A DNA stretch of 64,000 nucleotides from Candidatus Poribacteria bacterium. Lineage in GTDB: Bacteria > Poribacteria > WGA-4E > WGA-3G. Below the pieces are notes generated by a model. The model saw only the letters and a list, made by a program, of their open reading frames with translations, did no database searches and was not told the DNA's origin. A program made the position numbers and the translations under genes. The stretch spans positions 192,001 to 256,000 of the forward strand of contig CAXXUA010000004.1 in the NCBI GenBank assembly GCA_963663765.2, given 5' to 3'. Below, piece by piece: positions 4,196-35,623 of the stretch (its first letter is position 1; each line of letters begins with the position of its first letter).

Positions 4196-4432
4196 TTAAC
4201 GTTCTGTCTTATCAAGTGGATATGTCTCATCTTCTTTTGATAACGGGTACGGATCTTCCTTCGTCAATTCACCGTTCGGGAGTTCGTAGTAGCGATGTCC
4301 GTTAATATCATACACATTTGGGATCCCTTTTTTGCGGTTCTCCTCTTGTGCCCTTTTCGCAGCTCTATTGCCAATTTCCAGAAACTTACGTGCTTGTTTG
4401 TAGGTTTCAAGGCTCAATTCATCTTGACGCAT
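4196..4432 (-). CDS. Small protein translationally coupled to a zeta-like ATPase (possible antitoxin-like partner)
   Basis: TAATG overlap with upstream ATPase; AAKRAQEENRKKGIPNVY type of small partner. Confidence 0.6.
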   Translation of the reverse strand: MRQDELSLETYKQARKFLEIGNRAAKRAQEENRKKGIPNVYDINGHRYYELPNGELTKEDPYPLSKEDETYPLDKTER

Positions 4433-8766: not shown

Positions 8767-9462
8767 CAATTTTCCTCCTATGACAACAGTGGTTGTCTTA
8801 TAAATAATTAAAAGTATTGGTGTATATAGAACACAAAGAGTATTTTATTTGATTTGAATATATAATTCAAGATAAAATGATAAAATGATAGAATAACAGA
8901 GGTATTCAAATGGTCAGATAGTTTAATATTTATACCATTGCTAATTGATAATGTACCGTTCTCGGTGGAGATTCTGTAGGCAACAAGTGCTATATACAGG
9001 AAAATCATGGTGAATATCAAACGCGCATTCGTCAAAAGGTATTGGTCCCGTTGATTTGGTGCCTCACAATGTTGACTCTATCAAAAAAATAATAATCACG
9101 TTGATTTGGTATTATACCGAATTAACGTGAGTCGTCTTGCTAAGTGTGCGGTTAGGAAACCGCACCTACCGTTGGAAAAAGATAAATTACGTTGATTTGG
9201 TATTATGTCACCTAAAAGTCACCAATAAAAAATACGTGTCACGGGATTCAGAGTCAGTTTGTAAGAATCGCTATTCAACTTGTTGGGTTCGAAATTTTCC
9301 TACTTTACATGTGATGTGAACGCAACGTGAACAGTAAAAAATATCTATTATGTTATTGGTGCATGAAAAATGGTAAGCTTGAAGATTCAGAGCTTTTATG
9401 GTAAGGTAAAATTGCCCGGAAATGATGAGGCAAATATTCAAATTATGAAGGAGAAGCGTAAT

Positions 9463-9858
9463 ATGGCAAAAGTTAAGGTTTTTCTAAGTTTTGAGTTTGA
9501 CAGAGATGAGGAACTTCATCAAAATTTCTACGGGCAAGCTGCTGAATACTCCAGTCATAAAATTGAAGATTATTCACTAAACGAACCTTATCCACCACAT
9601 AATAACAGGAGTTGGTTGAAGATAGCGAGGGATCTAATTTCTTGCTCGGACATTGTGATTGCCGTTATAGGAGAAGACACTCATAATGCACCTGGTGTTG
9701 AAAAAGAGGTGACAGTTGCTAATCAGCAGAATAAACCTATCTTCCAGATTCGTCCGCAGAGCAGGACAAGTGGTCGGGTCGACGGGGCAGGTGAGGTAAT
9801 TCCATGGAAGTGGAAGAAAATCGATGCGAAAATTTCTGAGTGTTTAAAGAAAAAATAA
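9463..9858 (+). CDS. TIR domain protein (MTH538/Thoeris ThsB-like)
   Basis: KVFLSFEFDRD...SDIVIAVIGEDTHNAPGVEKEV with the catalytic-type Glu; AAGGAG RBS. Confidence 0.8.
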   Translation: MAKVKVFLSFEFDRDEELHQNFYGQAAEYSSHKIEDYSLNEPYPPHNNRSWLKIARDLISCSDIVIAVIGEDTHNAPGVEKEVTVANQQNKPIFQIRPQSRTSGRVDGAGEVIPWKWKKIDAKISECLKKK

Positions 9859-11081: not shown

Positions 11082-12299
11082 CTACCTAAAAACTTCGTCA
11101 AGTCGCCAAACAAGTTTAAGTGCATCTGACCAACCTGTTTTGGCAAAAATATCTAATAGATTTAGCAAGCTGTTCAAACAATCTTCGTCGTCTCTAACCA
11201 CATCACGATGGTCAGCGAGGACAATCTCAACCAATTTCACAACATCCTGAACTGCCAGTGATTCAAGATTATAACCGAAACGTTCACTTGATTTTGCAAC
11301 ATCATCAGCTAAAATTATAACTCTCTTAGGATCGCAATTGAGAAAATTGGTTAATAGTTGCATGAAATCGTGTGCTGTCGGTGCAAACATAAGTCCGTTT
11401 TCGCTATCATTTGCGAAATCCACTATCTGTTGCATCAATGGATAGACTTCATTGAAAATAAGACAATGTATGTCTTTATCTTCATTTTCTTGAGGAGGTC
11501 TGCTAACATTATTATTATTATGTGGGAATGTAAAGTAAAGACTTGAAATAATTTGGTCGAGAACTGCGTAAGTATTTCGTAATTCTTGTTCAACTTTTTC
11601 TGTTCTCTGTTCCTTAAACGTAGAACCTAACTCATTCATTGCAGGAATAGTTGCTGTAGCTATTTTCTTGAGTAGGATAATTGCACGTTTTAGATTCTCT
11701 TGAAAATCTGTATCTTGAGCACGTCTTGGATCAATATAACCCTTTATAATCTTTGTTACAAAACGAGTAAGGAGATTGGCATATCTAATAGGATCTCTCA
11801 AGAATTCTTCATCAATTGTGTTTAATGCCCATTGATTTTGACGTACAATTGCTAAACCCATTATAAGAAAACTAAACGGATCAACTGTACCCATTTTTTG
11901 TTCTGGTAGAGTAGTTTTCTCTAGAATTTTAGTCATAACCTGCACTGTATTTTCGTCATTCTCCTTTGTTGGTCGTAATACATAGGATAATGCAGAATAA
12001 AGACATTCTTGAACAATGAGATTACTTTCATTTTCGGCTCTCTCATTAATAATTTGCCAGAATCTATCAGGTTTTTTATTATAGATATTTGGTAGATGCA
12101 TTGCAGTAATCATTCGAACAGATGGAACTTTATCGGCAGCTAGCTTTTCAATTATAGATAGTATTTCCAGATCAGGTTTGTAGATACATATTTTTAGTAA
12201 TCCTTCAGCAGCATAGTGTCGTGGTTGTGAAGAATATCCTGGAAATTCGAAATTTTCATTGTTTTCTTGATCAGGATCAGGTAGATTATGAGTTGCCCC
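11082..12299 (-). pseudogene. C-terminal fragment of a large helical-repeat protein (possibly Avs/STAND-type antiphage ATPase), truncated at a MITE
   Basis: Frame stays open upstream of the called ATG (GATHNLPDPD...YAAEGLLKIC...DKVPSVRM) up to the MITE E end; terminus LLDIFAKTGWSDALKLVWRLDEVFR recalls Avs2-like proteins (from memory, unverified). Confidence 0.55.
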
Positions 12300-12443
12300 A
12301 TAAGCGTCAATTTAAGGATTTTCACCTCTTGTGGGAGGGGTTTTCAACCCCGAATTTATGCGCTTTTCCTCTCAAATCAAGGTTGAAAAACCCTCCCACA
12401 AGAAAAATGACAACAATATTTTCTTAAATTGACGCCTATGGGG
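12296..12443. mobile_element. MITE family E copy (TIR ATARGCGTCAATTTAAG)
   Basis: CCCCATAAGCGTCAATTTAAG...CTTAAATTGACGCCTATGGGG; related copies at ~39995, ~56457 (half) and ~57304. Confidence 0.8.
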
Positions 12444-12519
12444 CTGGGTTATCCAGCCCCTACGTGCCCCGCCGCACGTGCAAATAATTACGGATTTTAC
12501 TATAATATCAACCATACTC

Positions 12520-12670
12520 TTCAGTCCCGTAGAGACGATATGTTTATTCTTCTATGTCGTTCCTACGGAACTCAAGAGAGGGTGATTACGCCTTTCTATA
12601 AACATATCGTCCCTACGGGACTAAAGAGAACAAAAGTTTGTACCTCTGTGCAAAAACTTTACACACCCTT
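12520..12670. repeat. REP doublet (GTCCCGTAG.GAC / GTCCCTACGGGAC) plus a MITE D right end
   Basis: Palindromic pair as in MITEs B and C; ends ACTTTACACACCC. Confidence 0.6.
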
Positions 12671-12725
12671 GTATTCTACTACATGTAGTAAAGTAAATTA
12701 TTACACGAATTCATAGTAAATAAGC

Positions 12726-12807
12726 GGTGGCACGTGGACGTGACAATCCATGTGTGCTTTTTTTTTCGGTGGCATGCATGGTAAAATCCATGCATGCCAT
12801 TTTTTTT
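12726..12807 (+). terminator. Two tandem intrinsic-terminator-like hairpins
   Basis: GCACGTGGA...TCCATGTGTGC + T-tract, then TGGCATGCATGG...CCATGCATGCCA + T-tract. Confidence 0.6.
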
Positions 12808-13431
12808 AAGGAGAACGAACAATGAAGTAAAAACGCCCACGTATCACAGAAGAATTAGAACTGCTTTGCGTCACACTTGTCGCATAATTAGGCGATACAC
12901 AACAAGCAATAGCAGAAGTCAATAGACAGATGCTAATTCATCTATTGTAAATTATGGAATTAATTACACACTTGTACAGGTAGGAACGACCTCCTGGTCG
13001 CGACCGTATGGAGACCATGTATCAAAACAGTCGTGACCAGGAGGTCGCTCCTACCAAAGAAAAGAATTGGATACTTACATGACAGCTAATATGGTAAATT
13101 GTAGAAATGTAAACTTATTTTCAAATTTCACCATAAAATAAAAAATATGATACCTACGGTCTATCACCTGATGATCTAAAAGACAGAGATTGGTGTAAAA
13201 GAGCATTCAGAGATGCAAACCCGAACTATCCAAAATACTGTCCACCAGATTCTAAATATTTCAATACATTGAAGAGCAGAAGACGTTTTTAGCAGGATGT
13301 GTATAGAAAAACGTTGAATACCCTATCTTTAGTTCAATAGGGACGAGATGTGTATAGAACAATCTCAAAATGTGAAAAAATAATGCAAACAAGTAGTTAA
13401 CTTACACAACTCGTTATTGTGTAAATACTGA

Positions 13432-13746
13432 CTATTCCAAATCGGTTTGAATTTTTATCTCTTCATCTTCAACGATAACGGGATAGGTTCTAATTCGCAA
13501 CCGAGGATCCGTCAGACATTCACCAGTCTCTGTATTGTAGATATATCCATGCACCGGACAAACAACCGTTCCATTCCGTATCCGTCCACGTCCGAGTGAA
13601 CCCATTGCATGCGGACATGTGTTGTCTACCGCACAGAACTTGCCGTTTTCATTCAGAACTGCAATTCGTCTTCCATTGACTGTAAATGATTTTCCGCGTC
13701 CCTCTTTAATAGAAGATGTTTTTGTCACTGGTGTCCATTCAGACAT
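13432..13746 (-). CDS. Rieske [2Fe-2S] ferredoxin
   Basis: CPH...CPVHG Rieske motif. Confidence 0.9.
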   Translation of the reverse strand: MSEWTPVTKTSSIKEGRGKSFTVNGRRIAVLNENGKFCAVDNTCPHAMGSLGRGRIRNGTVVCPVHGYIYNTETGECLTDPRLRIRTYPVIVEDEEIKIQTDLE

Positions 13747-13751
13747 AGTTA

Positions 13752-15455
13752 TTACTCCTTTACACTTCCAAGTGTAATTCCTTGAACAAACTCGCGTTGC
13801 ATTGCTAAAAACAGAATGACAATAGGTAATAAAGATAGCAATGTACCTGCCATCAACATTCCGTATTCTTGTCGATATATGCCGACAAGATTTGCTAATC
13901 CGATAGGTAATGTGTATTTTGCTTCATCTCTTAGGATGATGAGGGGCCAGAGATACCCGTTCCACGAACTCAAAAAAGAATAAATAGTTAACGCGCCCAG
14001 TGCTGGCTTGATGATAGGTAGCACAATTCGGTAATAGATTCCGAATTCAGAACACCCGTCAATTCGTGCTGCGTCAAGTAACTCTGATGGTATCGTCACA
14101 ATGAATTGTCGCATCAGAAATACGCCAAACGCGCCAACAGCAAAGGGGATAATGATCGCTTTGTAGCTATTTAGCCAACCGATGTCATACATCAATCCGA
14201 ACAGAGGCACAAGCAAGACCTGAAATGGTACCATCATAGACGCAAGCAGGATACTGAAAAGAACAGTTTTACCGCGAAACTGATATTTTGCAAATCCATA
14301 TCCAGCGAGTGAACAGAAAAACAGCGTGAGAAGCGTTGAGGCAGTTGCTATGAAAACGCTATTTATAAAATAACGGTTATACGGAACTGCATTCCATAAA
14401 TTTCTATAGTTTGATGTAAGTTTGTACCAAACTATAGAAAGATAAGATGGACGGTGAATTGTTAGTTGTAGATTTATGTTGTGTTCACTACCGGGGGGTG
14501 GAGCAACGCTTTTTATCAAGTCTTGCTTTTCAACATATTGCTGCATCGGAATGTGTTCTGCCTCTAATTCACTTGGATCACCCTTTAGTCGCCAAATAAT
14601 ATCTTTCTTCAAATCAGTACCAAGAATAAAAGGATGCTCTGGTTGATATGTTGTTCCGATAGTTGATACAGATAGTGAGAGATGATGGTATGACGCATCA
14701 CCACGCACTGGTAATACAATACTTCTGATGTTATATATTGGAATGGATGACTGGACCTTTGCTGTCAGGTTGATTTGATTACTGTCTTGAAAAGTGTAAG
14801 TTAGACCAGTAATCGTAGAAGCATCGGTGTTATGCTGAATTGGTGTAATTGTTGCTGAATCAGATTCCCAATCTACGGATTCTACTTTGGTTTTTTTGAA
14901 ATCTGTGTCTTCAATTTCTATTGTACCAACTGTGACCTGTTTATATATGTTTTTCCAAATAGTTTCAATTGTTTCAGTGATTATAGCATTTTCAACTGTG
15001 TTTAGGATACTCTCATTATTAGCATTCCAAACTTCTGTTGGTAATGTTGCGATGTGTTGTTGCCAAATGCCTTGAACCGTTTCTGTTTGTAAGTCCTCTG
15101 ACAGATTGGTGGATGCAAGTTGTGGGTTTGCTGCGATATGTTCACGTGCTTTTTTCCATATTACATTTTCTAATTCAGGTTTAATCGTTTCCCATGCATC
15201 TTTATTAACTGATGCTGGTTTTGTAATATCTGGGTAAAGGTCGGTGACGACATAAGGCGATGATGTTATGCGTGACGGTAATTTAGGAAGCCATTTAATT
15301 GGTACTGCAAAAACCTCATTTGCGGTTTTGAATGAGGAACTTATTAGCCATAGCAGTGGTACCATTGTACAAAACGCGGCAGCAAGAAGTAGAGGATAAC
15401 CAATACCGATAGCGATTTTTCTTTGAACATTCTTGTGTTTATTATTACGGTTCAT
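13752..15455 (-). CDS. Carbohydrate ABC transporter permease (MalG-like) with a large extracytoplasmic insertion
   Basis: PLLWLISSSFK N-terminus; IPSELLDAARIDGCS EAA loop; ~300-aa soluble insert between TM1 and the core. Confidence 0.85.
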   Translation of the reverse strand: MNRNNKHKNVQRKIAIGIGYPLLLAAAFCTMVPLLWLISSSFKTANEVFAVPIKWLPKLPSRITSSPYVVTDLYPDITKPASVNKDAWETIKPELENVIWKKAREHIAANPQLASTNLSEDLQTETVQGIWQQHIATLPTEVWNANNESILNTVENAIITETIETIWKNIYKQVTVGTIEIEDTDFKKTKVESVDWESDSATITPIQHNTDASTITGLTYTFQDSNQINLTAKVQSSIPIYNIRSIVLPVRGDASYHHLSLSVSTIGTTYQPEHPFILGTDLKKDIIWRLKGDPSELEAEHIPMQQYVEKQDLIKSVAPPPGSEHNINLQLTIHRPSYLSIVWYKLTSNYRNLWNAVPYNRYFINSVFIATASTLLTLFFCSLAGYGFAKYQFRGKTVLFSILLASMMVPFQVLLVPLFGLMYDIGWLNSYKAIIIPFAVGAFGVFLMRQFIVTIPSELLDAARIDGCSEFGIYYRIVLPIIKPALGALTIYSFLSSWNGYLWPLIILRDEAKYTLPIGLANLVGIYRQEYGMLMAGTLLSLLPIVILFLAMQREFVQGITLGSVKE

Positions 15456-21255: not shown

Positions 21256-22764
21256 TTAGTTTAGGGTATACAGTTCACCATATTTTGTGTGTAGATAGTC
21301 AATATACGGTTCAATAGTCATCGGTTTTCCTGTTGCGCGTTCAATGATTTCTGGTGCAGTAAATTTAGAACCGTGTTGATAAATATTGTTCTTCAACCAA
21401 GTATGTAATGTACTGAATTCACCTTTCTCAATGCTGTTAGGTATCTCAGGATGTGCTTCAAGAGCTTTCTCATAGAACTGTGCACCTAATATGTTTCCTA
21501 AAGTATATCCTTGAAAAGAACCCCCAATGAGTCCAAAATACCAATGTACATCCTGCATTACGCCATCTTTGTTGTCAGGAGGTGCAATACCAAAATCTGC
21601 TTCAAATCTATCACGCCATGCATTAGGCAGGTCCTTGATCTCCATTTCACCCTCTAAGAGTGCTAACTCAAAATCAAAACGCAACATAACATGCAGGTTA
21701 TATGTAACCTCGTCTGCTTCAGTGCGAATGAGCGATTTTTCAACCTTGTTTATTGCGCGGTGGAAAGTATCAAGTGCAACTGAACCGAGTTGTTCAGGAA
21801 ATGTATCTTGCAGATGTGGATAGAAACTTTTCCAGAAACCCTTACTACGTCCTACGATATTTTCCCAGAGACGCGATTGACTTTCATGAACACCCGCAGA
21901 CGTTCCTCGTGCAAGTGGTGTGCCTTCAAACTCCAATTTTATGCCTTGTTCGTAGAGAGCATGTCCAGTTTCGTGCATAGTACAGAACAAAGCTTCCCCA
22001 AGACTATCCTCTTTAGTACGGGTTGTAATCCGAACATCACCGAGTGAGAATTTTGTCATAAATGGATGATGTGTTTTGTCTTGTCGTCCACGCGTAAGGT
22101 CATAGCCAAACTGTTTAGCAACTTCCATTCCAAATTTCAGTTGTTTCTCTTCTGGATAATGCTTATGTAAACAGGTATCATCTGCGGGGGATTGCGATGT
22201 GATTGCAGAGGCGATGGGAACAAGTTCTTTGCGGAGTTCAGCAAAGATACGACTGACATCTGCTGCTTTCATACCGTAATCTCTCGGTTCAATAAGGGGG
22301 TCTGCAATGTGGTCGTATCCAGGGAAAAAATTTGCACATTCACGACTATATTCAAGTGTTTTTTCAAGATAGGGACGTACCCGTTCAAAGTCATTTGCGG
22401 GTCGTGCTTCTGTCCAAACCTGATATGATTCTGATGTGTGTGTTGAGACTTTTTGCATGAATGCTGCGGGGATTTTTATTGCACGCTCATACTTACGACG
22501 TGTGACTCGGATGAGACTTGCTTCATTGGAATCGTATTCCAAGCTTTTTTCGTAGGGTGTAAGGGCATCAAGTAGTTTTCCGATAGCGGGGTCTGTGAAT
22601 TTCTCATGTGCTATCCGATTCAGTGTGGCAGTTTGGCGTGCACGTGCTGCAGCACCTCCTGCAGGCATATAGGTAGATTGATCCCAGTGAAGTAAACCCG
22701 CAGCGGAGCTAATATCATTTACTACAAGTAGTCGTGCTTTTAGTTCTTTGAATTTAGATTGCAA
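21256..22764 (-). CDS. Carboxypeptidase M32 (Taq-like)
   Basis: HPF, DVRITTR, HETGHALYEQ, HESQSRLWEN, IRTEADE, QDVHW. Confidence 0.95.
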   Translation of the reverse strand: MQSKFKELKARLLVVNDISSAAGLLHWDQSTYMPAGGAAARARQTATLNRIAHEKFTDPAIGKLLDALTPYEKSLEYDSNEASLIRVTRRKYERAIKIPAAFMQKVSTHTSESYQVWTEARPANDFERVRPYLEKTLEYSRECANFFPGYDHIADPLIEPRDYGMKAADVSRIFAELRKELVPIASAITSQSPADDTCLHKHYPEEKQLKFGMEVAKQFGYDLTRGRQDKTHHPFMTKFSLGDVRITTRTKEDSLGEALFCTMHETGHALYEQGIKLEFEGTPLARGTSAGVHESQSRLWENIVGRSKGFWKSFYPHLQDTFPEQLGSVALDTFHRAINKVEKSLIRTEADEVTYNLHVMLRFDFELALLEGEMEIKDLPNAWRDRFEADFGIAPPDNKDGVMQDVHWYFGLIGGSFQGYTLGNILGAQFYEKALEAHPEIPNSIEKGEFSTLHTWLKNNIYQHGSKFTAPEIIERATGKPMTIEPYIDYLHTKYGELYTLN

Positions 22765-23337
22765 TTATTTTCACCTTCAATTCAAGGATATGTATTTTGT
22801 TTCTTATTACCAAATAGTTTAGCATATTTTGATTACATATACAACCAATTTTGGAATTGAAGGGCATCCCGTTTTTTGGTCCTACTGCGTTTGTGAATCA
22901 AAGAGGCGGAAGATACCACCGTTCTCGTTGTTGGCTGTTTCTGTATGGTTATGTTCCGTATTATGGTCATGGTCGTCGTGTTCAGTATGGACTGATTTTA
23001 TGCTACTGTCATATTTGATGTAGGGTAGGTTGACAGTTTTACCGCTATTGAGGCTTGCAGTGACTATGGCAGGATCATGATGGAAGTCTATCTCAACGAA
23101 GGTTAGTTAATAGGTGTGTTTTTATGTACTGTAGCCAGGTGGTAGTGTGCACTACCTACAGATGTCCGCGGCACAAGCGGCACCATATAAAGTGGATGTT
23201 CGGGGTGTTCGTTAATGTGTGTATGTTGCGATATAGTGTGAAATATATCTTCTTCACTCAGTAGCAAATGCATTACGCGGAGTGTTTTGAGGAATTCAAG
23301 TGCTTCATGTTCAGATGTGGCAGCAGCAACGTGTTGC

Positions 23338-23658
23338 TCATACAGGTCTATCTAATTCCAGCATGCGCGCAAGGTACTTGTCCTTTGGATAAACTTCACC
23401 TGCTTTGCCTATTGCCTGCTTGAATCTTTCAGTACCGTCATACTTAGCAATCAATTTATCATCCCACTTGTCTATCATTTCTGCAACGGTGTAGGGTTGG
23501 TAAACCTTTTTGATATGTGCAAGGTCAAGTTGCTCCCAATGCCTTACCCATAGGGATTTATCCACACTGCGAATTTTAGGATTGCTACGACCAAAAAAGG
23601 ATGCCAGCACAGCAATAACAGAAAAACTAACGATAATCAGGATTATCTGTTTTTTCAT
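23338..23658 (-). pseudogene. Truncated divergent paralog of the cassette membrane-anchored family
   Basis: N-terminal TM; PYTVAEMIDKWD...EVYPKDKYLARMLEL aligns with PQTVEAIMAEYD...ETYPRADFLQRVLDK; TAATG-coupled to the upstream paralog. Confidence 0.6.
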
Positions 23659-25248
23659 TACGGTGCTACAGATGCAGGCGGTGCAGCTTCTGGTTTTGGT
23701 GGTGCAGGTGTCTCAGGTCTTTTCGGGACTTTAGGTGGCGGTTGCTTCCCTGTGCCGAAGTAACTTTCTAACATGTCTGCAAGTACTTCGTTGTCATGCC
23801 GTATCCTCTGTATCCCTTTTTCAAACCCGTGTTGAAACAGTGTACCTAAGGCTCTTTCAAGTCGCTCAGGGGTGATTAGTTCTAACTTTTCGACGGGATG
23901 TGCGGGTAGAAACTGTTTTCGGAATTGTCTTTCAAGGGATTTTTCAATTTCCGCATCCGACATCGTTGAGAATTCTTCTATTTGTCGCATGCGGTTCTCA
24001 AACTTCTCGTATTCAGCTTTTGCGGCGGCTTGGACTGCCAGCGCTGCTTTACGTGCTGCCTCACGGCGCGCTGCGTCTGGGTCATGTGTGGTCTCTTGCG
24101 TTTCGCGGGTTTGCCTTGCCTCATATTCTTCAAGCCAATCGATAGATGCCGGATGGCCGATTACCGATTCATAGTTATCAGGGGTTAACTTGACACCATC
24201 AACTTCAACATGGTGATGTGTGGGAACTCGCGTAGATTATTTAGCAAGTGGCGGAGGCACCGGAAGGACATTATAATCGTCATCAATGTAGATGATCTCA
24301 ATATCCTCTGGTTCAATACCTTTGAACCAAAGATCATTTGTCTGTTTTTGAGACAAACTACTACCAAAACCATACATGCTTTCGCGATTTTCTCCGAAAC
24401 GAACGTACCGCATCTTATCGATCACCGGTAGATATTTGTCCGGTTTCTGGATTCTCTTCGGAAACCTGTTGAATGATACTATTCTCCCATACCTTCCTAT
24501 CAAGAAATCCCTCTTCGTATTCTGCAAAATCTGTAGTGATCGGGATCCCATGGTTGCCGGAATGCCAGTCTTCTGGTCTGTCCTTTCTATAGAGCAATTC
24601 CCCGCGCAATTTCATATAATACTCGTAATCTGAAACCTTTTTAACTACCGCGCCTTTATCAAGGAGACGTTGGAGAAACACCGCACGCGGATATATTTCT
24701 TCCATCTCTGCGGCGCGGGGAAAACTATTATCATACCTATCGTCAAATTCTGTCATGATCGCCTCTGTGGTTTGAGGTCCCTCATAATACACTGGTTTAT
24801 CAAGGTGAGGCATTTCGGTTACAGGTGTAGGGATAGGGTATTTTTTCTTCTCGTAACGCTTTGCCTGATCCAATAAATAACTATAATCTCCTGGACGCTG
24901 CAAATCTATTTCCTTGGAGGTAGACAAAAAACCATTTTCTACTGACCAACCAAGGCGTATCTCTGTAAGGGCTTTTGCCCATTCCTTCCAGCTGGAGGGT
25001 GTCTGTGCTGCGTAAGCAGCGCGTTTTTCGGGGTCCGCAAGTGGGTGCAGCAACGTGCGATCTTCACCTGGCTTTGCCTTTGTCGCAATACGCGTGGGAT
25101 GCATGGGCAATGTCCGTTGTTTGGAAACCACATCTGGTGGAGACGCTACCTGATCACCCGAATGATCCTCACGGTGCATGAGTAATGCCCCTAAAGCACC
25201 TATACCTAATAAAATAGAAACAATAAAAATAGTCTTTTTGAGTGTCAT
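23658..25248 (-). pseudogene. Cassette membrane-anchored paralog P1 (disrupted)
   Basis: Near-identical to P3; 32-bp deletion at ~24444 and AAA>TAA at 24237-24239; conserved C-terminal domain 23658-23990 intact. Confidence 0.85.
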
Positions 25249-25329
25249 CTGTCTTGTCCCTTTCATTTGTAAAGATTCTCGACAATGCAAAGTACACCAC
25301 CGGGAAAGTATTAACAGCAAGATCAATCA

Positions 25330-25679
25330 CTACGGAAAGTAATAGTAACTGCCAGATGTAGACGAGGAAGGATTACTAGGATGGTAATCGTACGAGACAG
25401 AATTATTACTAAAGGTGTCTTCAAAATAGAAATTTATCTCTGCATGACTATTTGCTGGATCATACCTGTCTTGAACGTTTGAGGTCATACCGTTAAGAGT
25501 GGTTGATCTTCACGGCCTTCTTAGTCTTCGTACAGCGAATTTGTGTATTAACTCTTATGACTTTCGTCACCGGAACATTCACATATCCCATTGGTAACTG
25601 GCAAGATGACGAGCCCCGCCAGCGCAACAATAGACAAACATGTAGGAGTTAAAGTAATCGTCAAATTCTTAAAACGCAT
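25330..25679 (-). pseudogene. Disrupted secreted-protein gene (signal peptide plus C-terminal fragment)
   Basis: MRFKNLTITLTPTCLSIVALAGLVILP signal, internal stops, ending NVQDRYDPANSHAEINFYFEDTF...GSYYYFP* as at 29826-30014. Confidence 0.65.
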
Positions 25680-25754
25680 TTTCAATCTACTTTATAATCA
25701 AACTGTAAAGTATTTTCACAGTCTATTTTGATGCCGACAATAACAGGAGACATG

Positions 25755-26060
25755 CAGGGTTATTTAGTTTTAGGTTTTTTTGATGATTATTTGCTATAAC
25801 GTTAATTTATGTATTGCCATCTTGTCCAGTTCTTTAGTCCCGTAGGGACGATATGTTTATAGAAAAATGTTATCTACTCCTCTTGAGTTCCGTAGGAACG
25901 GCATATAAGAATAAACATATCGTCCCTACGGGACTAAAGAGCGATGTTCATGTTTCAATAATCTAAAACTGATGCAGAAAGTTCAGTTAGGAAACCGAAC
26001 CTGGGTATTAACTTTCAGTAAATCTCAATAACAGAAAACTCTTAAAACTAAATAACCCTG
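25755..26060. mobile_element. MITE family C copy inside the cassette array
   Basis: Perfect 17-bp TIR CAGGGTTATTTAGTTTT; no TSD visible. Confidence 0.85.
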
Positions 26061-26118
26061 CTAATAAAATTCCGCCTATACACTTTTTTTCTTTTTCAGG
26101 TGGTGCAGGTCTCTCAGG

Positions 26119-27687
26119 TCACTTTGGGACTTTAGGTGGCGGTTGCTTCCCTGTGCTGAAGTAACTTTCTAACATGTCTGCAAGTACTTCGTTGTCATGC
26201 CGTATCCTCTGTATCCCTTTTTCAAACCCGTGTTGAAAGAGTGTACCTAATGCCCTTTCAAGTCGCTCAGGGGTGATTAGTTCTAACTTTTCGACGGGAT
26301 GTTCGGGTAGAAACTGTTTTCGGAATTGTCTTTCAAGTGATTTCTCAATTTCCGCATCCGACATCGTTGAGAATTCTTCTATTTGCCGCATGCGGTTCTC
26401 AAACTTCTCATATTCCGTTTTGGCTGCGGCTTGTGCTGCCAGCGCTGCTTTACGTGCTGCCTCACGGCGCGCGGCATTTGGATCATGTGTGGTATCTTGC
26501 GTTTCGCGGGTTTGCCTTGCCTCATATTCTTCAAGCCATTCGATAGGTGCCGGATGGCCGACTACCGATTCATAGTTATTAGATGTAAGCGGTATACCTT
26601 TAAATTCTACAGCATGTTTCTGTGAACGTATGATTAGATCCCGTAGAGTAACAATCGGTGGGGGTTCTGAAAGCACATTGTAATCTTCGTCTATGTAGAC
26701 AATCTCTATACCATCCGGTTCAATCCCTTTTTGAAAGAGATTACTCTGTTGATTTTCTGTCAACGCTGTCCCAAATATGTCTAAACCACCATATTTATCC
26801 CGGTGAGCATACGTCATTTTCCCTATCACAGGGAGATACACATCAGGATGGCTAGCGGGAAAATAAACGTCAAAACTTTCACCTGGGTTCGCTTCAGAGA
26901 CTTGCCGTCTAACCTTATTTTCCCAGACCTTTCGCTGTAGAAAACCTTCTTCATATTCAGTGAAGTCTGTTGTAATCGGTATGCCGTAACTACCAGAACG
27001 CCAATCGTCAGGATGATCCCTCCGATACAAGAGCATTTGCCGCGTTACTTTTATCCAATATGCGTAATCGGTCCCGTTTTTGATCACCGCTCCTTTGTCA
27101 AGCACACGCTGCAGAAAATCCGCACGCGGATATGTTTCTTCTAACTCTTCAGCACGAGGGTCATAGTACGTTGGCGGCGCGTCATATTCCGCCATAATCG
27201 CCTCTACTGTCTGAGGTCCCTCATAATGCTTCGATTCATCCAGATAGGGTAACTCAATAGCAGTAGCAGGCACTGGGTGATTTTTCTTTTTATAACGATG
27301 GGATTGCCACGTAAAATGTTGAAAGAAAATCTTACGTTTACTAACAAGCTCGTCGGGTGTTAAAATTAAACCTTCTTCTACATAAGAACCCAGACGTGTC
27401 TCTGTAAGTGCTTTTACCCATTCATCCCAACTTGTGATCGGTTGATTTTTATACGCTTCGCGCTTTTCGGGGTCCGCAAGCCTGTGCAGCAACGTGCGAT
27501 CCTCGCCTGGCTTTGCTTTTGACCCAACACGCGTGTTAGGATGATGAGGAAACCGATCTTCAGTACCTCCAGGCGCAGCCATTTCTGTATCCGCAGTTTT
27601 TTTACCATGGTGGAATAGGAAGATTCCTATAGTAGTACTAAGACCTAACACAATAAAAAAAATGAAAATAATCTTTTTAAGTGTCAT
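26119..27687 (-). CDS. Cassette membrane-anchored paralog P2 (only essentially full-length copy, 522 aa)
   Basis: N-terminal TM, variable region, YEGPQT core, KGIEPDGIEIVYIDEDYNVL, Ala-rich linker, conserved C-terminal domain; GAGGAG RBS. Confidence 0.85.
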   Translation of the reverse strand: MTLKKIIFIFFIVLGLSTTIGIFLFHHGKKTADTEMAAPGGTEDRFPHHPNTRVGSKAKPGEDRTLLHRLADPEKREAYKNQPITSWDEWVKALTETRLGSYVEEGLILTPDELVSKRKIFFQHFTWQSHRYKKKNHPVPATAIELPYLDESKHYEGPQTVEAIMAEYDAPPTYYDPRAEELEETYPRADFLQRVLDKGAVIKNGTDYAYWIKVTRQMLLYRRDHPDDWRSGSYGIPITTDFTEYEEGFLQRKVWENKVRRQVSEANPGESFDVYFPASHPDVYLPVIGKMTYAHRDKYGGLDIFGTALTENQQSNLFQKGIEPDGIEIVYIDEDYNVLSEPPPIVTLRDLIIRSQKHAVEFKGIPLTSNNYESVVGHPAPIEWLEEYEARQTRETQDTTHDPNAARREAARKAALAAQAAAKTEYEKFENRMRQIEEFSTMSDAEIEKSLERQFRKQFLPEHPVEKLELITPERLERALGTLFQHGFEKGIQRIRHDNEVLADMLESYFSTGKQPPPKVPK

Positions 27688-27760
27688 CCGTTTTTACTCC
27701 TCTAATGATTGAAAACCGGTGGAACAATACACACCACCGGGTAAATAGGTCTACAGAAAA

Positions 27761-28045
27761 TCAATCACCTCCAGAACCTCCGCCTGAATCATAATCAGCG
27801 GGTTTCCAAGATACAGAATTACAACCACTGTGCCCTGAAAATTGAAAATCTAATGATACTTTGTTTTCAAGTCCGTACGTGGATAAATCTTTATTCTGAG
27901 TCTTACTAGGACCTTCTACTACAATTCGTCTTTCAACTTTTGTTTCATCGTTTGCCGTATATTTGTTTCCATTTGTGTGCGTAAAGGTGTAATGACCACG
28001 CAATGTTACCTCCCCTTCATAGACACTAGCCTTCACTAATGTCAA
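27761..28045 (-). pseudogene. C-terminal fragment of a beta-rich secreted protein
   Basis: Thr/Ser-rich beta-like sequence ending DSGGGSGGD; no signal peptide or RBS; lies just upstream of P2. Confidence 0.55.
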
Positions 28046-28096
28046 ATTTATTTTAGAAAATTTACGAAATTTCTAAAGTTTTTCACTATTTTTGAA

Positions 28097-28125
28097 ATAA
28101 TAAACGCGAATTTTATTTTTGTCAA
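28097..28125 (-). promoter_or_regulatory. Sigma70-like promoter of a cassette
   Basis: TTGACA-N17-TATTAT on the minus strand, followed by CAAAAATAGTGAAAAAC, which recurs at ~34081-34099. Confidence 0.7.
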
Positions 28126-28152
28126 ATTAAATTCTAATAAATATCCGCCTAT

Positions 28153-29745
28153 TCACTTTTTTTCTTTTTTAGGTGGTGCAGGTCTCTTTGGGACTTTAGG
28201 TGGCGGTTGCTTCCTCGTGCCGAAGTAACTTTCTAACATGTCAGCGAGCACAGCGTTATCCTGCCGTATCCTCTGTATCCCCTTTTCAAACCCGTGCTGA
28301 AAGAGTGTCCCTAATGCCCTTTCAAGTCGCTCAGGGGTGATCAGTTCTAACTTTTCGACTGGATGTTCGGATAGAAACTGTTTTCGGAATTGTCTTTCAA
28401 GGGATTTTTCAATTTCCGCATCCGACATCGTTGAGAATTCTTCTATTTGCCGCATGCGGTTCTCAAACTTTTCGTATTCTGCTTTAGCGGCGGCTTGTGC
28501 TGCCAGAGCTGCTTCACGGGCTGCCTCACGGCGTGCTGCGTCTGTGTCATGTGTAGTCTCTTGCGTTTATCGGGTTTGCATTGCCTTATATTCTTCAAGC
28601 CATTCGATAGATGCCGGATGGCCGACTACCGATTCATAGTTTTCAGGGGTTAACTTGACACCATCAACTTCAACATGGTGATGTGTGGGAACTTGCGTAG
28701 ATTTTTTAGCAAGTGGCGGAGGCCCCGGAAGGACATTATAATCGTCATCAATGTAGATGATCTCGGTATCCTCTGGTTCAATACCTTTGAACCAGAGATC
28801 ACTTGTCTGTTTTTGAGACAAACTACTACCAAAACCATATATGCTTTCTCGATTTTCCCCGAAGCGAACGTACCGCATTTTTCCGATCACCGGTAGATAT
28901 TTGTCTGGAGTACTTCCAGCAAAGTAGACTGTCACACTTCTTTCTGGATTCTCTTCGGAAACCTGTTGAATGATACTATTTTCCCATACCTTCCTATCAA
29001 GAAAACCCTCTTCATATTCTGCAAAATCTGTAGTGATCGGGATCCATTGGTTGCCGGAATGCCAGTCTTCTGGTCTGTCCTTCCTATAGAGCAATTCCCC
29101 GCGCAATTTCATATAATACTTGTAATCCGATACCTTTTTGACCACCGCGCCTTTATCAAGGAGACGTTGGAGAAACACCGCACGCGGATATATTTCTTCC
29201 ATCTCTGCGGCGCGGGGAAAACTATTATCATACCTATCGTCAAATTCCGTCATGATCGCCTCTGTGGTTTGAGGTCCCTCATAATACTTCGTCTCATCAA
29301 GATATGGCAACTCAATAGCAGTGGTAGGTACCGGATGATTTTTCTTCTTATAACGCCTCGCTTGTGTCATCCAATGTTGAGAATAATGATTACGCCGCAA
29401 CGCAACTTCCTTAAGTGTTAAAATAAACCCATCTTCTACTCTGGAACCGAGGTCTATCTCTACCATTGCTTTTGCCCATTCATCCCAGCTGGAGGGTGTC
29501 TGTGCTGCGTAAGCAGCGCGTTTTTCGGGGTCCGCAAGCGGGTGCAGCAACGTGCGATCCTCACCTGGCTTTGCCTTTGTCGCAATACGTGTAGAGTGCA
29601 TGGGCAACGTCTGTTGTTCGGAAACCACATCTGGTGGAGACGCTACCTGATCACCCGAATGATCCTCACGGTGCATGAGTAATGCCCCTAAAGCACCTAT
29701 ACCTAATAAAATAGAAACAATAAAAATAGTCTTTTTGAGTGTCAT
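28153..29745 (-). pseudogene. Cassette membrane-anchored paralog P3 (in-frame stop)
   Basis: GAA>TAA at 28567-28569 separates the N-terminal part from the in-frame conserved C-terminal domain 28153-28455. Confidence 0.85.
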
Positions 29746-29825: not shown

Positions 29826-30014
29826 CTACGGAAAGTAATAGTAACTGCCAGATGTAGACGAGGAAGGATCCCTAGGATGGTAATCGTACGAGACAGAATT
29901 ATTACTAAAGGTGTCTTCAAAATAGAAATTTATCTCTGCATGACTATTTGCTGGATCATACCTGTCTTGAACGTTTGGGATCCTACCGTGTTGTTGCACA
30001 TGAGCTGCTCCCAA
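29826..30014 (-). pseudogene. C-terminal fragment of a secreted protein (duplicate of 25330-25480)
   Basis: Near-identical DNA to 25330-25480; no N-terminus. Confidence 0.6.
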
Positions 30015-30177
30015 ATTACTTATGCTCGCATATTGATCTTGAGAATCGCCCTTTACTCTCTTATAAAAACTTTCTCGCCTATCTTCCGAGAAATAGCACC
30101 TTTTAACCCCCTAACCCCCCTTATCAAGTGGGGAATACGTTCATCATGAATTATCTATTTTTTCATTACGGTGCTTC

Positions 30178-31749
30178 TTATGATTTTGGTGGTGCGGGTC
30201 TCTCTGGTCTTTTCGGGACTTTAGGTGGCGGTTGCTTCCCTGTGCCGAAGTAGCTTTCTAACATGTCTGCAAGCACTTCGTTATCTTGTCGTATCCTGCG
30301 GATCCTCTTTTCAAATCCGTGTTGAAACAGTGTACCTAATGCCCTTTCAAGTCGCTCAGGGGTGATCAGTTCTAACTTTTCGACGGCATGTTCGGGTAGA
30401 AACTGTTTTCGGAATTGTCTTTCAAGCGTCTTTTCAATTTCCGCATCCGACACCGTTGAGAATTCTTCTATTTGCCGCATGCGGTTCTCAAACTTCTCGT
30501 ATTCCGTTTTGGCTGTGGCTTGTGCTGCCTCGGCAGCAGCGCTGGCTGCCTCACGGCGTGCTGCTTACCGATCAACAGTTGGTTCTGTCTCAACGTATTC
30601 ATCATATTTTTGTCTTATCTTGTAAGACATCGGTTTACCAGTGATTTCTTCATAACGTTCCGGTGTAAGTATTGTACCATCCGGCGCGCGGAGCCCTTCA
30701 GGTACAATATCGTAAGAGTTCTCCTCTCTCCATTTATCCCGATCAAAAGGTTTAGGCTTTTCGGAAAGGACGTTATAATCCTCATCAATGAAGACTACTT
30801 CTATACCCTCTGGTTCAATGCCTTTGTAAAGGAGGTTACGCCTTTGTTCATCGGTTAACATTGTCCCCCATGTCACCATAGTACCACTCGGTTTTTGACG
30901 AACGTACGTCATTTTACCCAAAGCTGGCAGGAATTTATCAGGATGACTTGGTGGAAAAAAAACACTTACCACCGAAGCGTCTGGGTTCTCAGTTGAAACT
31001 TTTTTAATAGTCTCAAATTCCCATATCTTTCTATCAATGAATCCATCAACATATTCTTTGAAGTTTGTAGTTATAGGGATATTGAGTTCACCAGAGTGCC
31101 ATGCTGCTGGCGCGTCTTTGAATTGCATGAGTTGTTCTCGTAAATTGAGAATATCTGCATAGTCAACGTACTCATTAAATCTATAACCTTTATCTAAAAA
31201 CTTTTGGAGAAAAGCTTCTTTCGGAAAATGTTCAGTCAATTCGGTTGATTCGGGATGTTTTTCAAGATATTTAGCATCAAATTCCTCAATAAGTGCTTCA
31301 GGTATCTGTAACCCAGTATAAGATAGACCAATGATCAACGCCCGTGGAAAATCGTCAATAAGATTTTTTGGAGGCGGATATTTTTTTCTATATTCTGCCA
31401 ATTCCCCTGCGAATGTTTCCCAAAGTTCTTTGCGTACTATCTCCACGTCTGCAAGGGTCTTAATAAGGTCACCACCTTCAGTAATTGAGCCGAGATTATA
31501 TTCTGTCCATGCATAAATCCATTCATCCCAAGTTGAAATAACTGATTGTTCACGATAAGCATCCCGTTTATCAGCATCAGCGAGGGGATGTAAGACTTCC
31601 ATTTCTTTAGGAGACAAACTTTCTTGTTGATATACACCGTTAGAGGAATTAGTTTGATTGTTGGCGGTATCAGTGGAACGAAGTATAATGAAAACAGCAC
31701 CAAGGCTTAATACGATAGAAATTATAATATAAATATTTCTGTGTTTCAC
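30178..31749 (-). pseudogene. Cassette membrane-anchored paralog P4 (in-frame stop)
   Basis: GTG start with AGGAG RBS; divergent N-terminal region; in-frame TAA at 30565-30567 (EPTVDR*AARREAA) before the conserved domain. Confidence 0.8.
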
Positions 31750-31821: not shown

Positions 31822-32547
31822 CACGGTTGGCCAGTGTATGTGACTTCTTTATGGCCGCTGGAAGCTGCTGAATTGAAACTTACACTTCGTGTTGCAGAAG
31901 AGTCCTCTTTTTTTTCAAACTCTACAGATACTGAGTGTCCAGATGTTCTGCCTCGTTAACCACTCTCTCTTGTGGATATTCTCTACTAAGTTTAGTTACT
32001 TTATACCTTTTGTTTCGTGTGTGAATTCAGTTTCGCTTTCAACAACTTCATAACTACCCTTAACCTTGATCCTGACTTTATCAGTAGTCGTTAAAGATTT
32101 ACCTGTTAACCATTTATATGTACCTTCACATACTTTCACCTTGAGAGCAATAGTAGTATGGCGAGGTACTGGGTCCCCATCAATAATATCATCAAAATCA
32201 TAAAATGGTTCAAATCCATCAATACCAGTTATGTTTGAAGACGCCTCTGAAGGTACCCAGTGTCCTCTGCAATAAGCGACGCGTTGAAGGGTATCACGAA
32301 ACCCTCTATTATTGCAACACCAACCATAAACAAATTGATTGTGATACCAGGTGTAATTTTCGACCATTATTGCCAAGTTAACAGTACCGAAAAGCGTTTC
32401 TTGGCTCTCAGTATAACGATCTCTTACCAGAATACCCACACCTCCATATGCGCTAACATTTTTTGCATCCAAGTAACCAACGAGATACCAACTTTCATTT
32501 TCAACTTCTTCTCTGGCGTAATAATTTGCAAAGGCGCCTTCATTCAT
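31822..32547 (-). pseudogene. Fragment of a Cys-containing beta-rich secreted protein
   Basis: 183-aa ORF without signal peptide; a shifted frame continues GRTSGHSVSVEFEKK...KEVTYTGQP* to ~31822. Confidence 0.55.
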
Positions 32548-34772: not shown

Positions 34773-35062
34773 CGACTTGTGCCAGTTAACCCATTGTTTT
34801 CAAAGTTTTTACATATATTAGGTTTATAATGCACACATATCGTCCCTACCAAATCAACGCCAAATGCGCGTATGGCATTTGTCGGGACTAAAGAGGATGT
34901 ACTATGACGTTTTCTATAAACATATCGTCCCTACCAAATCAACGCCAAATGCGCGTATGGCATTTGTCGGGACTGAAGATCGTTTCAAACTATGAAAGAC
35001 ACCTGCGAAACGTCATACTTATGTGAAACAATGATTAACATATAGTTATTTAGCACAACTCG
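34773..35062. mobile_element. MITE family B copy with two 34-bp inserts
   Basis: CGACTTGTGC...GCACAACTCG ends; flanks TTTATATAA/TTTATATAG. Confidence 0.85.
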
Positions 35063-35282
35063 TTTATATAGTGAAATATACAATTAAGTTTACACTTGTT
35101 CTGTAGGCGGGGAATGCCAATAGGCATTCATACAGTTGATTTCGATCTCCGAATCGCGACTGAACGCCTTGATAGTCGGGAATCGGAGTTCCCTCCTACA
35201 CCTGAATGTGTAAAAATAATTCTAAAATCTACTATAAAATTAAATTCTAACAAACTTTTACAACGACATAAAAATTTTAATA

Positions 35283-35623
35283 GGGTCAGGACTTACGCAG
35301 TTTTCATGATTTGATGAAGAATTATGACGAAAATGGTGTAATTTTCAGCATTTTTTCGGTTTCCAGCGCCAAATCAAGAAATCAACGGTATGAATGTCAT
35401 TTAGGCATTCCCCGCCTACCGTTGGGTGCGTAAGTCCTCAGGGTGTGTAAAGTCTTGGTTACTATGCGTAAGGGCGGGGTTTCCCCGCCCGATCAAAAAC
35501 TTTACACAGGCGAGGAAACCTCGCCCCTACGATGTCCACAGTTCGCTAACGTCCATCAAGTTTTGATAGAAACTTGATGGACTTCTTTTAATATCAGTGT
35601 TTCTACAAAAACTTTACACACCC
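35283..35623. mobile_element. MITE D (TIR GGGTGTGTAAAGT) with MITE A (35287-35439) inserted in its left end
   Basis: MITE D 9-bp TSD ATTTTAATA; MITE A 5-bp TSD AGGGT. Confidence 0.85.

Follow-up and report, generated by a model that had tools for sequence, protein, structure and literature searches.

The minus strand of the window (the whole 64,000-nucleotide stretch of Poribacteria DNA that was analysed) carries a tandem array of five copies of gene B, and two of them, P1 and P3, are nearly identical except for a sharply bounded block in which they differ strongly. Two other Poribacteria genomes, L001 and L002, contain one version of this block each, and the breakpoints coincide. As judged by synonymous divergence, the block versions are older than the L001 and L002 lineages, with the flanks held alike within the window's genome. 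We consider it probable that discrete block versions of old origin were already recombinant before L001 and L002 split, and that gene conversion within the genome subsequently homogenised the flanks and spared the block. The array consists of copies of the middle gene of a three-gene operon, A-B-C, that in this analysis was found only in Poribacteria, and remnants of the A and C genes persist between and beside the copies (Table 1).

Table 1. Gene B copies, their modules and blocks, and associated A and C gene sequences, in window coordinates
Feature	Position	Strand	Remarks
C gene of A-B-C operon	23338-23658	-	residues 1-105 only, of about 201-203
P1	23658-25248	-	pseudogene: 32-nt deletion at ~24443/24444, TAA at 24237-24239
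C-terminal module of P1	23706-24005	-	family D1
P1-type variable block	24791-24987	-	P1 residues 88-153; 75/197 nt differ from P3, offset 4497
A-gene remnants upstream of P1	25378-25685	-	tblastn matches to A residues 1-62 and about 246-289, with the interior deleted
C-terminal module copy, P2	26107-26406		92-96% identity among copies
P2	26119-27687	-	sole full-length copy, 522 aa
P2 homologous block	27223-27423	-	residues about 89-155; column entropy 2.3-3.0 bits
A-gene 3' remnant (ORF94) upstream of P2	27797-28042	-	
P3	28153-29745	-	single in-frame TAA at 28567-28569; rest of frame open to end
C-terminal module copy, P3	28171-28470		92-96% identity among copies
P3-type variable block	29288-29484	-	register equal to P1 block
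A-gene 3' remnant upstream of P3	29868-30092	-	
P4	30178-31749	-	divergent copy; one in-frame TAA at 30565-30567, immediately ahead of C-terminal module
C-terminal module copy, P4	30196-30495		92-96% identity among copies
A gene upstream of P4	31824-32544	-	first 29 residues missing; frame break near 31946-31963
P5	32540-33664	-	divergent, without linker and C-terminal module; adjoins 5'-truncated A gene

A divergent block in near-identical gene copies

Over positions 24444-25493, the alignment of P1 with P3 is gap-free and the offset stays at 4497 nt. There are 96 mismatches in the 806 nt from 24444 to 25249, and 75 of these fall inside the 197-nt block, whereas the flanks differ at 12 of 347 nt below the block and at 9 of 262 nt above it (21 of 609 together). 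The whole P1/P3 codon alignment has 1558 sites, of which 163 differ; 73 of these differences lie among the 183 sites of the best segment, and 90 among the 1375 sites outside it. The corresponding chi-square of 191.7 was reached by none of 300 shuffles, whose maximum was 35.3. Triplet tests (0 of 5000 shuffles) mark two separate tracts, at codons 121-158 and codons 384-527. The original prediction of two near-identical paralogs that differ strongly within a block of ~60 amino acids is therefore upheld, although the block is longer, at 66 codons. An even spread of the differences, the outcome that was to count against the prediction, is excluded by these shuffles, and the peptides quoted in its support occur in the translations, including KAKPGEDRTLLH.LADPEKR, which P2 has in common with both.

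Estimates of dS between P1 and P3 are 1.18 in the block, where about 42 synonymous sites underlie the estimate and divergence between types is near saturation, and 0.10, 0.15 and 0.14 in the flanks. This difference indicates that the block is a recombination mosaic and not a product of local hypermutation; in the assembled sequence, the block has a separate, recombinational history. Quartet site patterns are 24:0:2, 27:0:3 and 34:1:3 in the flanks, versus 11:6:8 in the block. The block substitutions comprise 35 transitions and 40 transversions, affect every codon position, and are free of adenine bias (where the two differ, P1 has A at 24 sites, C at 20, G at 13 and T at 18).

The second half of P3's block had also been reported to match P2. 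In protein sequence it is indeed closer to P2 (pN 0.08), and over codons 121-158 the triplet test groups P3 with P2 (0 of 5000 shuffles). However, dS between the half-blocks of P3 and P2 is 1.24, which is saturated, and dN is 0.08, suggesting an old divergence under purifying selection, so the likeness does not derive from the P2 of the window. A recent conversion of the half-block from P2 to P3 was considered and is ruled out by the same dS. The P2 block as a whole stands at a dS of 0.85-1.34 from those of P1 and P3.

Diversifying selection on the block, which was part of the original prediction, is not supported by its pairwise dN/dS, with a value of 0.36 when the types are compared with each other and of 0.24-0.25 when one type is compared across genomes. 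The ratio is about 0.6 between types in the first 42 codons of the block, and in these pairwise estimates it nowhere exceeds 1. The block types are discrete and conserved, and are not continuously diversifying.

Block types in other Poribacteria

The B gene of L002 (L002B) carries a block of the P1 type (88% amino-acid identity, dS 0.22), and that of L001 (L001B) carries one of the P3 type (92%, dS 0.13). Between the two block types, dS is 1.2-2.0. In the comparison of L001B and L002B, dense differences span nucleotides 279-458 of the coding sequence, as they do between P1 and P3. Because both types occur with equal breakpoints in L001 and L002, the mosaic was not made in the window's genome. 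In the converted tracts, copies from the window's genome resemble each other more than they do their orthologs elsewhere: mid-flank dS is 0.10-0.15 between P1 and P3, 0.26-0.45 between the window's copies and L001B or L002B, and 0.24-0.54 between L001B and L002B. Two neighbouring genes compared between the window and L002 have dS values of 0.41 and 0.48.

A single B copy was seen in each of L001, L002, L003 and L008, at syntenic or probably syntenic loci, with the contigs of L001 and L002 both ending at most about 1.3 kb from the gene. L006 has two adjacent copies, whose divergence is too high for a mosaic to show. The P1 and P3 block types may represent alleles or paralogs, and both accounts are compatible with the data. 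Two further family members, P0005 with a P1-type and P0002 with a P3-type block, share 100% identity over P3 positions 241-420 but only 40-53% in the block. When the N-terminal part of P1 was searched for homologs, the nearest match was P0005, at 74% identity.

Block and core trees, which took in 78 of 84 rows, conflict with each other, showing that block types have been re-sorted among core backbones throughout the family. The block tree pairs P3 of the window with P0002 (support 97), P1 (row wP1n) with P0005 (91), and P4 with P0043 (99). The core tree instead pairs P1 with P3 (95), P0002 with P0005 (93), and P4 with P0077 (100), whose core is 95% identical to that of P4. In AU tests, p-values were 0.057, 0.021, 0.025, 0.012 and 0.024 for core pairings on block data, and 0.068, 0.046 and 7.6e-5 (the last for P4) for block pairings on core data; P1/P3, the one pair named beforehand, is borderline at this protein level (p = 0.057 and 0.068), and the other pairs were chosen after the trees had been inspected.

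The block is bounded by two motifs, W-x-E-W and Y-x-G-P-Q-T, that are nearly invariant (73-81 of 78-82 rows). The conserved residues include W87 (77 of 78 rows), W90 (74 of 78), Y155 (81 of 82) and Q159 (80 of 82). All eight discordant pairs that were profiled regain identity at about residues 155-165. The divergent part is confined to the block in two of these eight pairs, and extends upstream of it into the N-terminal region in four.

State of the array and its C-terminal module

The array is in decay. P1 is a pseudogene, P3 and P4 have nonsense codons, P5 is truncated, and P2 alone is whole. The deletion in P1 shifts its offset to P3 from 4497 to 4465. At the site of the P3 stop codon, P1 and P2 have GAA, and L001B and L002B encode Glu. 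Neither the breakage of P1 nor the in-frame stop of P3 had been mentioned in the original prediction. P2 is matched at 97% identity over 58% of its length, in the C-terminal part, by P0003 from another data set, which is uninterrupted there. P0077 was also compared in respect of the P4 stop, and its last residues resemble adapter read-through. The nearest relatives of P5 are 551-554 amino acids long. A scan for consensus promoters and terminators yielded 43 promoter-like sites, with 29.6 expected, and did not tell expressed copies from silent ones.

The C-terminal module, overlooked previously, is homogenised across P1 to P4, with dS of 0.19-0.42 among all four copies. In P3 and P4, it forms a 100-aa ORF following the stop codon. 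The four modules of the window sit in a clade of six rows with support of 100, and core data reject the window's four copies as a single clade (delta lnL 283.8, p = 6.7e-5). P1 and P2 are 98-100% identical in windows at P1 23803-23893 in this region (triplet test, 0 of 5000 shuffles).

Origin of the mosaic and possible role of the block

According to the history that we favour, the two block versions would have arisen by homologous recombination between diverged family members, with breakpoints at the two boundary motifs, before the window's genome separated from those of L001 and L002. Later gene conversion within the genome would have kept the P1/P3 flanks and the C-terminal module of P1 to P4 alike, as in concerted evolution, and would have left the block unconverted. 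The boundary between the variable N-terminal part and the core would be a recurrent crossover point across the family. We infer both that gene conversion was the mechanism and that the flanks were homogenised, as opposed to one block being imported after a recent duplication.

The latter sequence of events is unlikely in our estimation, but it deserves the most attention among the alternatives. In it, the gene was recently duplicated in tandem here and one copy then gained the other block type, either as a 200-nt patch from a related strain or unseen paralog, or because a whole foreign allele was placed in tandem. A single event suffices, and dS in the P1/P3 flanks (0.10-0.15) indeed points to a more recent date than does the divergence from L002 (0.41-0.48). 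Across genomes, block dS within a type (0.13-0.22) is not above flank dS, as expected if blocks move between lineages, and only one B copy is visible in each of L001, L002, L003 and L008. Yet the contigs of L001 and L002 stop beside the gene, so that the single copy is the visible part only, and the C-terminal module indicates that conversion is active in the array. Moreover, P0002 and P0005 repeat the pattern of two types on a common backbone, and duplication and import would therefore need to recur. In terms of the number of tracts, homogenising both flanks while sparing the block amounts to two conversion tracts, and importing a patch amounts to one.

Programmed variation, in which block variants pass by segmental gene conversion into P2 from the broken copies P1, P3, P4 and P5 acting as silent donors, would fit an array in which one of five copies is whole, conserved motifs bracket the variable segment, and P1 and P2 have exchanged tracts recently in their C-terminal region. 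Nevertheless, it appears very improbable, given that the block of P2 is without recent exchange with array copies. Each of P1, P3, P4 and P5 retains its start codon, membrane anchor and upstream sequence, and none is a silent cassette without a start of its own, like those of pilE/pilS, vlsE and msp2/p44. Close relatives also carry intact single operons, and the breaks accordingly look like decay.

There is a slighter chance still that two strain alleles of one locus were misplaced in tandem during assembly. In L001 and L002, the two types do look allelic at a single syntenic gene, and repeats at 96-100% identity are prone to misassembly, but the junctions of P1 differ from those of P3: remnants of both the 5' and the 3' end of the A gene lie upstream of P1, the C gene lies downstream of it, and P1 has a deletion and stop codon of its own. 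In addition, P2 separates P1 from P3, the 3' flank of P3 is unlike that of P1 and common to P2, and the cluster containing P3 of the window has a longest contig of 1,193,507 nt. Finally, local hypermutation or positive selection in place, for example by a diversity-generating retroelement, could account for sharply localised divergence in the structured part of the family that varies most, but is refuted by equally diverged synonymous sites (dS 1.18, dN/dS 0.36) and by the recurrence of the same two sequences in other genomes, and both the adenine-specific pattern and a reverse transcriptase (among 35 scanned ORFs of at least 150 amino acids outside the array) are absent.

Where gene conversion makes bacterial multigene families evolve in concert, it can leave unconverted islands. 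The array resembles such families in two respects: in converted tracts, copies from one genome are more similar to each other than to their orthologs elsewhere, and trees of different segments disagree. It differs in that its unconverted island has discrete types and identical breakpoints across genomes. In Anaplasma msp2/p44 and in Neisseria pilE/pilS or opa, a hypervariable segment between conserved sequences is exchanged by segmental gene conversion. The array shares with these systems a central variable segment between conserved anchors, and clustered copies of which several are truncated or broken. It differs from them in that there is no sign here of a single expression site with promoterless cassettes, the whole copy P2 lacks recent block exchange, and purifying selection acts on its few, old types; its organism is a sponge symbiont and not a pathogen. 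Antigenic variation by segmental gene conversion is the subject of a review (PMC4534519). Rhs and polymorphic-toxin genes are described as diversifying through displacement of terminal modules (PMC2935791). The B family likewise evolves in a modular way, with recurrent crossover at a conserved motif, but its variable part is N-proximal and not a C-terminal toxin tip, and no toxin or immunity domain was found with Pfam or NCBIfam.

Although recombination between gene copies is a known process, the protein family is new. A literature search combining Poribacteria with gene conversion retrieved unrelated work only, and a broader search gave no Poribacteria paper among the best matches listed. At present, the locus, most of which is decaying, stands as a clean case of an island protected amid concerted evolution. 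It is conceivable, though quite doubtful, that the block is a partner-recognition surface of an A-B-C cell-envelope system, that its few discrete types are maintained over long times by balancing or frequency-dependent selection (exerted, for example, by phages or the sponge host), and that the broken copies are an archive from which gene conversion reinstates types. If so, the array would be a cassette system resembling antigenic variation in a non-pathogenic animal symbiont. An exposed recognition surface would also represent a rare combination of long-lived type polymorphism with cassette exchange in a sponge symbiont, and would offer a concrete target for studies of symbiont-phage or symbiont-host recognition.

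A previously undescribed modular protein family is defined by these results. Within this analysis it was found only in Poribacteria, and a profile search finds 485 cluster representatives at E <= 0.001. P2 to P5 match no family above the cut-off in Pfam-A or NCBIfam, and matches below threshold (GARP, DUF4731, MAD7, VirB5) were treated as chance. The A and C proteins from other loci also have no Pfam match. A Foldseek search of the PDB with the P2 model (mean pLDDT 81) returned 0 matches at E <= 0.001, the ESM Atlas gave no usable match, and Rfam gave none over the whole window.

The B protein, of ~530 amino acids, has an N-terminal membrane anchor, a variable helical-hairpin block, a conserved core, a linker and a conserved helical C-terminal module. 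As anticipated, the block is variable in homologs, and ranks among the family's most variable parts, at 2.3-3.0 bits per column versus 0.8-1.9 in the core. It may point away from the membrane on the non-cytoplasmic side. In the AlphaFold2 model of P2, the block forms helices at residues 87-104 and 111-134 followed by coil at 135-160, with pLDDT above 90. Used as a stand-in for burial, conservation has no peak at the 100-degree helical period in helix 87-104, and does peak there in helix 111-134, with a power of 1.37 relative to a mean of 0.31.

Mosaic structure of P1 and P3

Five tandem copies of gene B of the A-B-C operon, P1 to P5, lie in the window (see table). The span of the original prediction, 24790-29480, runs from the variable block of P1 through to the same block in P3, and a strong difference between these otherwise near-identical copies was proposed there. 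This difference is borne out, and the peptides quoted in its support are found in the translations. P1 and P3 can be aligned gap-free from 24444 to 25493, the offset staying at 4497 nt throughout, and differ at 96 of 806 nt within 24444-25249. The block (197 nt, 66 codons) contains 75 of these differences, leaving 12 for the 347 nt below it and 9 for the 262 nt above it. The full codon alignment has 163 differences in 1558 sites, and its densest segment has 73 differences in 183 sites versus 90 in 1375 outside (chi-square 191.7), a value reached by 0 of 300 shuffles, the highest of which gave 35.3.

Synonymous divergence indicates that the block has an older history than its flanks, because P1-P3 dS is 1.18 in the block but 0.10, 0.15 and 0.14 in the N flank, the middle part and the part after it, respectively. 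The block is a recombination mosaic, as originally proposed, and hypermutation is ruled out by the same dS values. The 75 differences comprise 35 transitions and 40 transversions, fall at the three codon positions in numbers of 25, 18 and 32, and are without adenine bias. The 35 larger ORFs outside the array are ordinary chromosomal genes and include neither a reverse transcriptase nor an integrase.

Tests within the window agree with a mosaic that is real and statistically robust. P3, tested as a child of P1 and P2, groups with P2 over codons 121-158; P1, tested as a child of P3 and P2, does so over codons 384-527 (0/5000 shuffles each). Quartet patterns, counted as P1P3/P2P4 : P1P2/P3P4 : P1P4/P2P3, are 24:0:2, 27:0:3 and 34:1:3 for the flanks, against 11:6:8 for the block and 2:6:3 for the C-terminal module.

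Two further elements of the original prediction are not supported. Diversifying selection on the block lacks support, given a P1-P3 dN/dS of 0.36. The specificity role proposed for the block is hypothetical. The second half of the P3 block resembles that of P2 (dN 0.084), but its dS of 1.24, at which synonymous sites are saturated, is no lower than the 0.83-2.25 seen elsewhere in this gene pair. The resemblance is a product of purifying selection on an ancient type common to both, and does not stem from recent donation by the window's P2.

Coordinates of features (window positions, or residues of the P2 model)
Feature	Position	Strand	Description
P1	23658-25248	minus	copy of one protein family, tandem array
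P2	26119-27687	minus	copy of one protein family, tandem array
P3	28153-29745	minus	copy of one protein family, tandem array
P4	30178-31749	minus	copy of one protein family, tandem array
P5	32540-33664	minus	copy of one protein family, tandem array
Block, P1	24791-24987		P1 type
Block, P3	29288-29484		P3 type
C-terminal module, P1	23706-24005		
C-terminal module, P2	26107-26406		
C-terminal module, P3	28171-28470		
C-terminal module, P4	30196-30495		
A-gene remnant	25500-25685 with 25378-25494		
A-gene remnant	27797-28042		
A-gene remnant	29868-30092		
A-gene remnant	31824-32544		has frame break
Small repeats	25831-25860 / 25911-25940		flanking array
Small repeats	34835-34894 / 34920-34979		flanking array
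Small repeat	34883-34934		flanking array
Small repeats	35103-35143 / 35378-35419		flanking array
P2 model	residues 2-27		N-terminal helix
P2 model	residues 27-52		disordered linker
P2 model	residues 87-104, 111-134; 135-160		block: helices; coil (pLDDT > 90)
P2 model	up to about residue 340		mixed core
P2 model	from residue 405		helical C-terminal module

Block types in relatives and across the family

Two family loci in other Poribacteria genomes, L001 and L002, are from close relatives of the window's genome (dS 0.41 and 0.48 for two neighbouring genes compared with L002). In each, the A-B-C operon is intact and its B gene uninterrupted, and both contigs stop within about 1.3 kb of it. The flanks of P1, P3, L001B and L002B are 90-100% identical. 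The L002B block is of the P1 type (88% amino-acid identity to P1, 44% to P3), and that of L001B is of the P3 type (92% to P3, 45% to P1). Block dS is 0.13 (P3-L001B) and 0.22 (P1-L002B) within types, versus 1.2-2.0 between them. Dense differences between L001B and L002B occupy coding nucleotides 279-458, the same as in P1/P3. The contrast recurs in P0005 and P0002, related proteins from other data sets, whose identity is 100% over P3 positions 241-420 but 40-53% in the block. It follows that both types, with their breakpoints, predate these lineages. Middle-flank dS is 0.10-0.15 for P1-P3, 0.26-0.45 for window copies versus L001B or L002B, and 0.24-0.54 for L001B versus L002B; together with the neighbouring genes, these values indicate that the flanks of P1 and P3 diverged after the split from L002. 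Codons 1-87 have a dS of only 0.08-0.16 among all four copies, from three genomes, which is below that of the neighbouring genes and suggests either recent exchange between lineages or 5' constraint.

Family-wide entropy per column is 2.3-3.0 bits for the block, compared with 0.8-1.9 for the core and about 0.9-1.3 for the C-terminal module. Two nearly invariant motifs bracket the block, W-x-E-W on its 5' side (W87 in 77/78 rows, W90 in 74/78) and Y-x-G-P-Q-T on its 3' side (Y155 in 81/82, G157 in 79/82, Q159 in 80/82). One family copy (L006, 1332-3017) carries a tandem-doubled 5' motif, with two T-W-K-E-W-I sequences 13 residues apart, perhaps left behind by unequal exchange at this site.

Among 3159 sequence pairs, core identity of 88-95% accompanies block identity of only 33-52% in wP4/P0077, wP1n/wP3 (the tree rows of P1 and P3), P0002/P0005, P0013/P0016, P0025/P0033 and P0031/P0043. 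The reverse pattern also occurs (P0010/P0013, core 87%, block 100%; P0008/P0016, core 67%, block 90%). In all eight discordant pairs profiled, identity is regained at about residues 155-165. The upstream limit of divergence is W-x-E-W in two of them (wP1n/wP3 and P0013/P0016); divergence reaches the N-terminal region upstream of the block in four, and two show a weaker drop in identity. The last 7 residues of P0077, at a contig end, resemble a translated sequencing adapter, so its C-terminal end is uninformative.

Block and core trees were built from 78 of 84 rows, leaving out P0019 (identical to P3) and five rows short of block or core. The block tree pairs wP3 with P0002 (support 97), wP1n with P0005 (91), wP4 with P0043 (99), P0025 with P0077 (99) and P0031 with P0033 (94), whereas the core tree pairs wP1n with wP3 (95), P0002 with P0005 (93), wP4 with P0077 (100), P0031 with P0043 (100) and P0025 with P0033 (98). 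AU tests gave p = 0.057, 0.021, 0.025, 0.012 and 0.024 for block data under the five core pairings, and p = 0.068, 0.046 and 7.6e-5 for core data under three block pairings. Only wP1n/wP3 was named before the trees were seen, and both its tests are borderline; the strong evidence for this pair is at the DNA level.

Origin of the mosaic and the C-terminal modules

Most likely, homologous recombination between diverged family members placed two alternative blocks on one backbone, with crossovers probably in the short conserved motif codons, before the lineages of the window, L001 and L002 separated. Later gene conversion in the window's genome would have kept the P1/P3 flanks and the P1-P4 C-terminal modules alike. 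Either divergence too great for pairing or the usefulness of both types may have kept the block distinct. In the main rival explanation, a recent duplication preceded import of the other block type, or a foreign allele was captured; this needs fewer events at this locus, but would probably have to have recurred in the source of P0002 and P0005.

Concerted evolution has acted on the C-terminal module of P1-P4, linking paralogs that are otherwise distant. The module spans roughly 300 nt and is 92-96% identical among the four copies, with a dS of 0.19-0.42, whereas upstream P4 is saturated versus the other three. In a tree of 75 modules, the four copies form a six-row clade with P0003 and P0020 (support 100), whereas core data reject the window copies as a single clade (delta lnL 283.8, p = 6.7e-5). 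The P1-P4 cores fall in different deep clades despite their alike modules. P0020, which comes from another data set and is only distantly related within the family, has the same module type.

Protein family and state of the locus

B belongs to an uncharacterised family, found here only in Poribacteria; recombination itself is a known kind of process. No Pfam or NCBIfam family scored above cut-off. A word-based search returned 79 relatives, mostly 520-550 aa, the sole named one being from Candidatus Poribacteria, and all ten family loci in the genome collection are in Poribacteria MAGs. A profile search of 1.84 billion cluster representatives yielded 485 matches at E <= 0.001, 210 at <= 1e-10 and 94 at <= 1e-30. 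An AlphaFold2 model of P2 (70 aligned sequences; mean pLDDT 81, pTM 0.56) had no Foldseek match in the PDB with E <= 0.001, and the ESM Atlas gave no usable match. The single N-terminal hydrophobic helix suggests that the bulk of B is outside the cytoplasm. Literature listings and the opening parts of abstracts contained no paper on the B family or such mosaics in Poribacteria.

The locus is mostly decaying. P2 is the only whole copy: P1 carries a TAA at 24237-24239 as well as a 32-nt deletion, P3 a TAA at 28567-28569 (GAA in P1 and P2, Glu in L001B and L002B), P4 a TAA at 30565-30567, and P5 is without linker and C-terminal module. All A copies in the window are remnants, and the C gene retains only residues 1-105 of about 201-203. 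The syntenic site of L003 and L008 has one A-B-C operon adjoining the same carboxypeptidase and nucleoside hydrolase genes, and that of L002 adjoins the same phosphoesterase and superoxide dismutase genes. P0003, an independent fragment, is 97% identical to P2 across 58% of P2, in the C-terminal part, and is uninterrupted there.

The single in-frame TAA in P3 and in P4 lies just upstream of the conserved module and in each an open frame of 100 aa that begins MRQIEEF comes after it; neither L001B nor L002B is interrupted at these places. These codons may split the gene into two products or simply inactivate it.

The C protein (L001 2914-3525, L003 11522-12127, window 23338-23658) is weakly similar to the B core, at family profile positions 174-217 (tblastn E = 1e-4 to the P1 core region, a weak match), and may be a distant short paralog of B. 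In L003, the C gene and the M32 carboxypeptidase gene are separated, at 12128-15144, by genes for an 834-aa multi-pass membrane protein and a 171-aa product; window 22764-23338 is without both, and L001 has fragments of both. The two long intergenic stretches on either side of the array contain small perfect or near-perfect inverted and direct repeats, which may represent a palindromic repeat element. Upstream in the window are ORFs with a ThsB-type TIR-like domain (9370-9858) and a zeta-toxin/AAA_33 domain (4432-5019).
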